This document shows positions 2,484 to 2,951 of a stretch of DNA of 37,380 bases, piece after piece. Under the pieces are notes generated by a model. It worked only from the letters and a program-made list of their open reading frames with translations. It was not told where the DNA came from and did not search any database. Made by a program: the position numbers and the translations under genes. The first letter of the stretch is position 1. Each line of letters begins with the position of its first letter. The stretch lies in sequence record ON470598; one strand, written 5' to 3'. This DNA is from Escherichia phage vB_EcoS-569R4.

Positions 2484-2531
2484 TTTGCTGCTCCTCATCA
2501 TATCGACCCTGCAAGGTCGGTTAGTTTCTCC

Positions 2532-2664
2532 ACAAAACAGAGAAGAACACCTGCGGTGACTGCCGCCCGGATGGATTGGGTTATGAGCCCGTCGTCCGGT
2601 GATGCTCTTCTCTGTTTTGTAAAAAGGACGGTACCAGCCGGAAGCAAGGGTACAAGCTGGTACC
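2532..2664. repeat. two adjacent long perfect inverted repeats (15-bp stem 2532-2546/2606-2620; 9-bp stem 2630-2638/2656-2664) in a non-coding region
   Basis: ACAAAACAGAGAAGA pairs exactly with TCTTCTCTGTTTTGT across a 59-nt loop; GGTACCAGC pairs with GCTGGTACC across 17 nt; no credible ORF spans the 2484-2951 region. Confidence 0.5.
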
Positions 2665-2886
2665 GCCAAGACTACACACAGCATAAAGTTGTGGTGCCGG
2701 GTGCCTCCCGGTGCCTGGCGAAGGTTGCACACTAGGCGGGTGGGTATCCACAGAAGGTCGACTGTCAGCCTCAACCTTAACCCGCGTGCGCTGAGCCGCA
2801 TTCACCACAACGCTAAGGATTCTCTCTGGTTGAAAATACTTAGCTGTTATGTGCCTGCTTTTAGCCACATCAGGCGAGGTGGACCT

Positions 2887-2936
2887 GGTTATTCCCCAAC
2901 AACAAGGATTCGGTTAATCTGGTTATCCCCAACAAC
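2887..2936 (+). promoter_or_regulatory. tandem direct repeat GGTTAT(T)CCCCAACAAC x2 immediately upstream of the 2952 CDS
   Basis: Two near-identical 16-17-nt copies at 2887-2903 and 2921-2936, followed by AAGGAAAAG and the ATG at 2952. Confidence 0.4.
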
Positions 2937-2951
2937 GCAAAAGGAAAAGAA

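Follow-up and report, generated by a model that had tools for sequence, protein, structure and literature searches.

The locus and its parts

Escherichia phage vB_EcoS-569R4 (sequence record ON470598) carries a structured element of 468 nucleotides (nt) at positions 2484–2951 of the 37,380-nt stretch of DNA analyzed here, which is called the window. The element is part of the early-left operon, which comprises a repressor gene, the candidate early-left promoter pL, boxA, a small open reading frame (ORF), an RNA array, yfdP-yfdQ-yfdR, xis, and int. A sequence-only reading of the same DNA had proposed a regulatory RNA or structured leader, and the region is very probably a conserved, covarying RNA structure. 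The same reading had connected it with the oppositely oriented orphan gene starting at 2952; the RNA instead lies on the minus strand, upstream of yfdP in the early-left operon, and is not the leader of the 2952 gene. The explanation that is somewhat favored is a DicF/STnc100-type prophage small RNA locus, whose product would be released by termination and ribonuclease (RNase) processing. The modules of the array, from 5' to 3' on the minus strand, are as follows.

2921–2936, minus strand: distal copy of the repeat motif (minus-strand GUUGUUGGGGAUAACC), which has the loop-motif sequence with no clear stem in this window
2884–2907, minus strand: proximal repeat copy as a hairpin, CCUUG-UUGUUGGGGAAUAA-CCAGG, with 4 of 5 pairs, holding the repeat at 2887–2903
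2853–2882, minus strand: GC-rich element next to the junction motif on its 5' side, either a hairpin or possibly an H-type pseudoknot
2846–2852, minus strand: junction motif ACAUAAC (ACACAAC in most relatives), nearly invariant in the alignment of homologues
2812–2844, minus strand: hairpin P0, GCUAAG-U-AUUUUC...GAGAAU-C-CUUAGC, as given by the fold
2688–2811, minus strand: cloverleaf-like multi-helix body of about 124 nt, STnc100-like
2668–2687, minus strand: single-stranded candidate seed UUUAUGCUGUGUGUAGUCUU of about 20 nt, predicted to be unpaired in most variants
2621–2667, minus strand: intrinsic terminator with a 12-bp stem (2627–2638/2656–2667) including one G.U pair, and U5 at 2621–2625
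2532–2620, minus strand: three-way junction I1, a 20–25-bp stem with two small arms, which contains the 15-bp repeat of the sequence-only reading
2502–2521, minus strand: small hairpin (CGACC/GGUCG) between I1 and the ribosome-binding site of yfdP
2481–2496, minus strand: start of yfdP, the first gene downstream (annotated in an identical genome), with Shine-Dalgarno GAGGAG at 2491–2496 and ATG at 2481–2483

Two further features lie between the repressor gene and the array.

3730–3758, minus strand: candidate early-left promoter pL, TTGCCA-17-TAGATT, a consensus match only, just downstream of the cI-like gene
3606–3642, minus strand: hairpin (3623–3642) followed by the rrn-type boxA-like sequence AGCUCUUUAACAA (3610–3622), presumably upstream on the same transcript

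The repeats of 2484–2951 are not the product of chance. The 15-bp perfect inverted repeat described earlier was found at 2532–2546/2606–2620 both by reading the sequence and with a repeat finder, and it lengthens to 25-nt arms (2532–2556/2596–2620) with 84% complementarity. The second inverted repeat was correctly located at 2630–2638/2656–2664, but its length, given as 9 bp, is actually 10 bp (2629–2638/2656–2665). An additional 9-bp inverted repeat at 2688–2696/2803–2811, absent from the earlier description, is the closing helix of the cloverleaf. The direct-repeat copies GGTTAT(T)CCCCAACAAC were present at 2887–2903 and 2921–2936 as described. When the 468-nt region was subjected to 300 dinucleotide shuffles, none attained a 15-bp perfect inverted repeat (the maximum was 14, reached once), and an 11-nt perfect direct run was attained by 2 of the 300. 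A 10-bp inverted repeat turns up in approximately 4% of shuffles; the case for the 10-bp repeat therefore rests on its conservation and not on its length.

RNA structure and its relatives

At two positions, the long stem has A.C mismatches when read from the plus strand; read from the minus strand, both are G.U pairs, so that 25 pairs follow one another without a break. Only on the minus strand does a U-tract, UCCUUUUU, come after the 10-bp hairpin. RNA folding, a check that the sequence-only reading had suggested, gave −181.8 kcal/mol (z −4.45) for the minus strand versus −168.1 kcal/mol (z −2.71) for the plus strand. The RNA is assigned to the minus strand because of the G.U pairs, the U-tract confined to that strand, and the better minus-strand fold. 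The second suggested check, covariation in related prophages, showed that the helices stay paired through compensatory changes in phages of Escherichia, Salmonella, Klebsiella, and Cronobacter.

The I1 junction was compared in 16 distinct sequences of E. coli, Salmonella, and Klebsiella types. In these, 94.1% of cells are paired and 9 pairs have changed on both sides; none of 500 shuffles attained the observed values, and slid partners pair in at most 48%. U.G pairs in I1 occur on the minus strand only. In locus L100 the I1 stem has a wholly different sequence and is still fully paired. The apical sub-hairpin of I1, CGGGCUCAUAACCC at 2578–2591 (minus strand), is identical in 14 of 14 positions to the anticodon stem-loop of the E. 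coli initiator transfer RNA (tRNA), tRNA-fMet (metZ positions 29–42), and its GGG/CCC stem and CAU are kept in the Salmonella and Klebsiella variants. The start codon of yfdP is about 95 nt downstream of this apical hairpin.

The cloverleaf body consists of a closing helix, GUUGUGGUG/CACCACAAC (2803–2811/2688–2696), a UGCG-GCUCAG-CGCA hairpin, a central arm, a hairpin CCUAGUGU...CGCCAGG, and, immediately ahead of the closing strand, a CCGGG-AGGCA-CCCGG hairpin. Pairing is maintained in 98% of cells in 19 sequences of types A–C, versus at most 44% when the partners are slid. The closing helix occurs in several versions, all fully paired: that of the window, AUUGUGGUG/CACCACAAU, GAUGUGGUG/CACUGCAUC, GGUGUGGUG/CACCACACC, and GUUGUGGU/GCCACAAC. 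The stem of the AGGCA hairpin varies likewise (CCGGG/CCCGG, GGUGG/CCACC, CCUGG/CCAGG, and UCGGG/CCCGA), and the loop AGGCA is kept in nearly all variants. Separate folds of 15 variants returned the same five-arm layout. RNAalifold on a plain MAFFT alignment of all body types failed in the variable center and put a gap wrongly into the AGGCA hairpin, and per-helix extraction and hand-written structures were used instead.

The modules on either side of the body vary in a similar way. At the position of P0, other types carry different yet paired sequences (GAAAGCGCAUUCC/GGAAUGCGCUUC, CUGAAACGG/CCGUUUCAG, and GAGAGCA.../UGCUCUC), and the hairpin at 2502–2521 is GGCGG/CCGCC in ST64B and the Klebsiella types. 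In the pseudoknot candidate, stem 1 is formed by 2879–2882/2865–2868 (CCAC/GUGG) and stem 2 by 2871–2875/2853–2857 (GCCUG/CAGGC). Among the loci, stem 1 occurs as CCAC/GUGG, CCACG/CGUGG, and CACC/GGUG, and stem 2 as GCCUG/CAGGC, GCCGGG/CCCGGC, GCUGG/CCAGC, CCCGG/CCGGG, and CCCCG/CGGGG; these few independent variants are suggestive only of conserved pseudoknot stems. The junction motif ACAUAAC pairs with GUUGUGG in the minimum-free-energy fold. Its complementarity to the 5' strand of the helix that closes the cloverleaf makes it a possible alternative pairing partner of that strand.

The body matches the Rfam family STnc100 (RF02076) on the minus strand at 2618–2841 with 44.2 bits, over the full length of the model (positions 1–206). 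The E value was 2.5e-8 in a 601-nt search and 1.6e-6 in a scan of the whole window, where it was the sole strong match. At curated gathering thresholds, Rfam returned no match anywhere in the window; thus, the Rfam check came out empty by that measure, and the scan by E value gave a full-length match just under the threshold. In phages phiES15, 118970_sal3, and ST64B, sub-threshold STnc100 matches lie at the syntenic place. The element has both hallmarks of STnc100: a multi-helix junction whose closing helix is (A)UGGUG/CACCA(U) and, next to the closing strand, the invariant CCGGG-AGGCA-CCCGG hairpin. STnc100 and the small RNAs PasD1 and PasD2 are also prophage-borne and end in a terminator hairpin with a U-tail. 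They differ from the window element in place, since the canonical place of STnc100/PasD is the late region (Q, stx, esterase, and lysis genes), whereas the window element belongs to the early-left operon. Furthermore, the 3' part of the window element is DicF-like and not STnc100-like, and unlike STnc100 it is one part of a longer array that has other conserved modules as well. In EDL933, transcription of STnc100 copies has been observed, with Northern blot confirmation for one of them (PMC5331693). The stability of PasD small RNAs depends on Hfq (PMC8550237), and PasD and STnc100 are reported to be related (bioRxiv 10.64898/2026.05.13.724894).

Three described RNAs were rejected as the identity of the element. 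PasB is located among phage structural genes, and PasD/STnc100 proper are in the late region. The third, svsR/co293, is located at the 3' end of cI; svsR is a co293-like small RNA at that site in the NC-SV prophage (PMC12803456).

The 468-nt element is present in 2781 of 5426 complete E. coli genomes, which is about half. Among the matches listed, the annotation beneath it is "hypothetical protein", "none", or YmfH, and none is marked as RNA. Phage records with the element include SfIV, SfV, SfII, ST64B, 118970_sal3, F1055, Klebsiella Kp4866-6, and Cronobacter phiES15; beyond E. coli genomes, it occurs in Shigella, Salmonella, Klebsiella, and Cronobacter phages. A pattern search based on the closing helix and the conserved single strand yielded more than 120 loci from IMG/VR, among which the body exists in at least six forms. 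Stx2 phages, such as Stx2a phage 1447 (L131 1480–2300), have only the terminator, I1, and yfdP (2484–2669) in common with the window, and both their seed, AGCCACUGCUUUGGCAG, and their body differ from those of the window. This partial sharing places a mosaic breakpoint at about 2669. Other mosaic breakpoints inside the element lie at about 2882/2936. The earlier suggestion of a relic of a recombination junction thus contained a grain of truth, in that breakpoints lie within the element and 2484–2669 alone is common to Stx2 phages. The sequences suggest that seeds may be swapped on a constant terminator.

Several side observations concern the arrays of relatives. Klebsiella-type leaders (L042, L052, L058, and L071; about 650 nt upstream of the body) are arrays of more than 1 kb of different structured modules, which are set apart by "ACACAAC - hairpin - GUUGUG". 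Some of these modules have two T-arm-like hairpins, UCUGGUUCGAUUCCAGA and GUCCGUUCGAUUCGGAC. A tRNA-His-like gene lies inside the early-left array at L042 1800–1925 (plus strand) and L070 4506–4632 (minus strand). Its features are a D-loop AGCUCAAAUGGAUAGAGC, an anticodon-loop region UUGUGU, a T-arm GGGUUCAAAUCCC, and a variable region enlarged by about 55 inserted nt; its core acceptor helix, GUGGUG/CACCAC, is shared with the closing helix of the cloverleaf bodies. In both loci it reaches 40 bits with the Rfam tRNA family RF00005, against a threshold of 29, and ARAGORN overlooks it. Other Rfam matches are a weak one to IsrG in the window at 36999–37235 (minus strand; 23.9 bits versus 100), one to IsrK above the threshold in ST64B (L003 5232–5308, plus strand; 64.3 versus 50), and a sub-threshold match to RprA that overlaps the body of L019 (1204–1339, plus strand; 47 versus 70).

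The annotation of the region as a gene was also examined. PGAP, the annotation pipeline, placed a frameshifted "hypothetical protein" over the region in a genome of 100% identity, and the copy in the e14 prophage of K-12, 90% identical to the window element, is annotated as "protein YmfH" (L002 3002–3313). Between ymfH and the window there are 29 substitutions, which fall 9/10/10 on codon positions 1/2/3 with no excess at the third position, and three frame-breaking indel events (+1, +2, and −1). Because there is no codon-position bias and frameshifts separate the copies, K-12 ymfH is judged to be non-coding, and it is probably a phantom gene. The statement of the sequence-only reading that no credible ORF covers the region needs to be qualified, since mechanical ORFs of 95, 114, and 226 amino acids span it, but it stood in that the coding test failed. 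The same substitution and indel counts dispose of a degraded coding sequence, which had been named as a refuting outcome. A literature search on ymfH gave nothing relevant, and ymfH as an RNA was not described there.

The direct repeats had been interpreted as a possible array of protein-binding sites for control of the orphan gene. Among relatives, this motif forms a hairpin loop, and the stems that carry it differ yet pair: GCUGG/CCAGC in e14, CUGG/CCAG in phiES15, CUUGG/CCAAG in L100, and UCUCG/CGAGA in Kp4866-6. Two copies of the motif UGUNGGGGN occur upstream of the RNA in 30 loci with an orphan-gene homologue and also in 15 loci without one. The covarying stems and these 15 loci assign the repeats to the minus-strand RNA rather than to control of the orphan gene, and they weaken the protein-binding proposal.

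Candidate seed, terminator and operon context

The candidate seed and the terminator form the 3' part of the predicted RNA. The pattern used for collecting demanded the seed core UGCUGUGUG, which makes its invariance in the collected loci a consequence of the search itself; TGCTGTGTG-AG-CTT is retained in the seven homologues that BLAST found independently. The stretch adjoining the seed core, (U/G)(A/G)G(U/A)(C/U)UU, is well conserved. The terminator hairpins of the relatives have at least seven quite different sequences, every one of which is followed by U5–U7 on the minus strand. Among the terminator hairpins of ST64B (L003), Kp4866-6 (L006), and L100, some are expanded, with an internal AGGAGG. 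In L100, the AGGAGG is followed by a tiny ORF (AUGAAGAUAAUGUUCAUAG). The predicted succession of cloverleaf, single strand, and terminator has the form of an Hfq-type small RNA.

DicF is the known small RNA to which this 3' part is closest. Rfam DicF (RF00039) matched weakly at 2626–2680 (minus strand), on the terminator hairpin, with 19.4 bits and an E value of 0.11. At the same position, DicF scores are graded from 76.7 in the Qin prophage through 37.6 in L070 and 29.1 in L042 to 19.4 in the window. A hidden Markov model of the family tail (seed plus terminator), built without L070, found dicF as its best match in the Qin locus (E 0.005). In K-12 Qin (L129 3720–4100), the 340 nt between ydfC and dicF hold a body of the F1055/L070 type, directly upstream of dicF. 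A second Qin body, which scores 34.4 bits with STnc100, follows dicF and immediately precedes dicB. In F1055 and L070, the Qin-type body is followed by the UGCUGUGUG small RNA. Since the same body type precedes both, DicF and the UGCUGUGUG small RNA share a position. L070 is intermediate, having the DicF flank CCGCCCUUUUUAAAG(C/U)GAA and the second body in common with Qin.

The dicF locus resembles the window locus in several respects. In each case the locus comes after the repressor in the early-left operon of a lambdoid prophage, and the parts follow in the same order: a structured body, an AU-rich linker, a single-stranded seed, a GC hairpin with U5, a long helix, and the next gene. Sequence likeness extends over UUGGCGGUA(C/U)CAG and the tail CCCUUUUUA. 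They differ in that the body is of type A in the window versus type E in Qin, and in that the downstream helix closes a small three-way junction here versus a second cloverleaf in Qin. Judged by sequence and place, DicF is a homologue of the putative 3' small RNA of the window, and this 3' part appears as a diverged paralogue of DicF. Homology of the cloverleaf to the STnc100 body, and of the locus to the DicF locus, is likely.

The processing of DicF is relevant in this context. The 53-nt DicF arises by termination plus RNase E cleavage, and a 72-nt DicF arises when RNase III cuts read-through transcripts 19 nt past the terminator (PMC9438474). Counting positions in the Qin sequence puts this cut site within the long helix that closes the second body, which is the position of I1 in the window. 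There is an even chance that I1 is a processing site of RNase III for read-through transcripts. The main text of papers on RNase III targets does not mention the e14 region.

The upstream part of the operon begins with the repressor gene at 3812–4438 (minus strand), which encodes a cI-like protein of LexA type with helix-turn-helix and S24 peptidase domains. It is followed on the minus strand by the promoter-like site, the hairpin with boxA, an ORF of 68 amino acids, the opposing orphan gene, and the array. Around the pL hexamers, at 3730–3800 (minus strand), there are repeated AACTAAG and a palindrome, ACTAAGTTAAGTTAG, which from their sequence are probably operator sites of the cI-like repressor. 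The array follows the repressor-proximal promoter directly in L019 and Stx2a phage 1447.

boxA functions as an antitermination signal in ribosomal RNA operons and upstream of the arrays of clustered regularly interspaced short palindromic repeats (CRISPR). The exact boxA 12-mer GCTCTTTAACAA was found in 44 of 130 fetched loci, and it is upstream on the same strand in the loci where its position was compared with that of the element. The arrangement resembles that of rrn and CRISPR loci in having a hairpin-preceded boxA upstream of a long untranslated structured transcript; it differs in that a small ORF and an opposing gene intervene between boxA and the array, with boxA outside 2484–2951. On the plus strand, the boxA hairpin with its T-run resembles a terminator for the orphan gene. 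The orphan gene (2952–3386, plus strand) belongs to the ECs1072 family, has no Pfam match, and overlaps with its 3' end the 68-amino-acid ORF (3358–3564, minus strand) by 29 nt. Since its direction of transcription opposes that of the early-left operon, transcription convergent with that from pL is implied.

Proposed mechanism, alternatives and meaning

By analogy with DicF, RNA polymerase would transcribe the array once pL is derepressed. Some transcripts would end at the terminator (2621–2667) and give an RNA of about 200 nt consisting of cloverleaf, seed, and hairpin, as in PasD/STnc100. Alternatively, RNase E cleavage in the AU-rich linker may produce a small RNA of about 60 nt. The released RNA would pair with its targets through UGCUGUGUGUAGUCUU. 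RNase III would cut read-through transcripts in the 25-bp stem of I1 (2532–2620), so that the small RNA and the yfdP mRNA would become separate molecules and the cut would set the 5' end of the mRNA. A function in trans is considered slightly more probable than its opposite.

A number of points weigh against this account. The STnc100 score of 44.2 bits is 2.8 bits short of the gathering threshold of 47, and the DicF score of 19.4 is below its threshold of 48. The seed here is UGCUGUGUGUAGUCUU versus UUUCUGGUGACGUUU in DicF. Because TTGTGGT, CCACAA, and TGCTGTGTG were fixed in the collecting pattern, the pattern itself accounts for part of their invariance among the collected loci; the sources of the compensated variants are positions outside these stretches and the second bodies found independently in Qin and L070. 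In a promoter scan, neither strand had a sigma-70-like site immediately upstream of the array, and the sole such sites on the minus strand are at 3198–3171, in the antisense of the orphan gene, and at 3758–3730 (pL). Because no convincing promoter lies directly upstream, expression would depend on pL, which is repressed in the lysogen, or on a weak internal site. Data for a stable Hfq-dependent RNA of about 200 nt are at the family level only, from EDL933 and enteropathogenic E. coli. The duplex energy against ftsZ (−100 to +60) was no better than that of shuffled small RNAs, in a test of low power that likewise did not separate authentic DicF (42/200). A search of the prophage window for a complementary target site of the seed found only the locus itself. 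Finally, conservation of the cloverleaf and of the interior of I1 is unexplained if seed and terminator suffice.

The strongest alternative, although an unlikely one, is a purely cis-acting leader. It would be an attenuator, or a cloverleaf that acts on RNA polymerase or Rho (put-like or Nus-dependent antitermination) past the internal terminator, with the early-left genes yfdPQR, xis, and int as its object and a released RNA that has no function in trans. The array always lies between the repressor-proximal promoter and the first early-left ORF, an intrinsic terminator always follows the body, and boxA is conserved upstream, all of which would suit such a leader. ACAUAAC and CACCACAAC compete for GUUGUGGUG, which would give two exclusive folds, but no alternative pairing was seen that would break the terminator stem. 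The second body of Qin, directly before dicB, has no small RNA of its own; DicF, the homologue, nevertheless works in trans, and the STnc100/PasD relatives accumulate as Hfq-dependent RNAs with RIL-seq partners.

The put RNA of phage HK022 was considered as a model for a leader of this kind. This RNA, about 70 nt long, forms a V shape from two stems and attaches to the zinc-binding domain of RNA polymerase (PMC9378689). The likeness consists of a structured leader RNA upstream of terminators in early operons of lambdoid phage, in the context of a repressor that resembles HK022 cI according to an annotation note in ST64B. However, put has two stems, versus a five-arm cloverleaf plus other modules here, and the put region showed no sequence similarity by motif or BLAST. 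Membership in the put family was rejected, since the HK022 immunity region had no motif or BLAST match to the window and the architecture differs.

It is improbable that the modules act as tRNA mimics, that is, as tRNA-derived processing signals for RNase P/RNase Z or decoys for tRNA-directed enzymes or toxins, with the apical arm of I1 mimicking the anticodon arm of the initiator tRNA. The topology is that of a cloverleaf, with a closing helix, a D-like arm, central and extra arms, and a T-like arm abutting the closing strand; yet the T-like loop has 5 nt (AGGCA) versus 7 in tRNA, and there is no CCA end. A neighboring Klebsiella-type module passes the Rfam tRNA threshold and shares the core of the closing helix, whereas the window body had no tRNA match even at E ≤ 10 and ARAGORN found no tRNA or transfer-messenger RNA in the window. 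The 14/14 identity of the I1 apical hairpin to the tRNA-fMet anticodon stem-loop is set against a C in place of the U33 counterpart in some I1 variants, and the likeness may stem from ancestry and not from present function.

An element of the plus strand or of the DNA itself serving the 2952 orphan gene (promoter, operator array, or 5' leader), or a degraded ymfH gene, is very improbable: the repeats stop 15 nt short of the orphan-gene ATG, that gene needs some plus-strand promoter in or near the region, and PGAP places a frameshifted coding sequence here and ymfH in K-12, but the conservation of structure is specific to the minus strand, the repeats are present in the 15 loci that have no orphan gene, the plus strand of the region has no sigma-70-like site, and the coding test, with its absent codon bias and its frameshifts between ymfH and the window, speaks against a gene.

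Part of the favored small RNA account is already described, namely STnc100 and PasD with their relatedness, DicF, and svsR/co293, which are in related prophages at other sites. The literature searched held no account of the early-left element, of a cloverleaf upstream of dicF, or of ymfH as an RNA, and a search on DicF together with tRNA-like structures likewise returned no earlier account of the upstream cloverleaf. A broader hypothesis can be formulated, but it is tentative and rather unlikely. In many enterobacterial lambdoid prophages, the early-left leader may be a non-coding array, protected by boxA, of cloverleaf modules derived from tRNA. Every module would be closed by the same GUUGUGG/CCACAAC helix and parted from the next by an ACACAAC-hairpin junction, and the host RNases P, E, and III would cut the array into small RNAs with swappable seeds. 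DicF would then be the sole studied member and ymfH another such RNA, and the anticodon-arm mimic of I1 and the tRNA-His-like gene would perhaps be mimics or decoys.

DicF is a textbook prophage small RNA, hitherto regarded as a 53-nt species on its own in the 3' untranslated region of ydfC. The comparison made here places it in a much larger conserved RNA architecture that STnc100/PasD also have, and identifies a widespread DicF paralogue with a different seed, carried by 2768 of 5426 complete E. coli genomes. It also raises the question of what role a conserved cloverleaf plays before prophage small RNAs. Re-annotation of K-12 ymfH would remove a phantom gene. If the small RNA reading is true, the element would be a candidate regulator whose expression begins when the prophage is induced.

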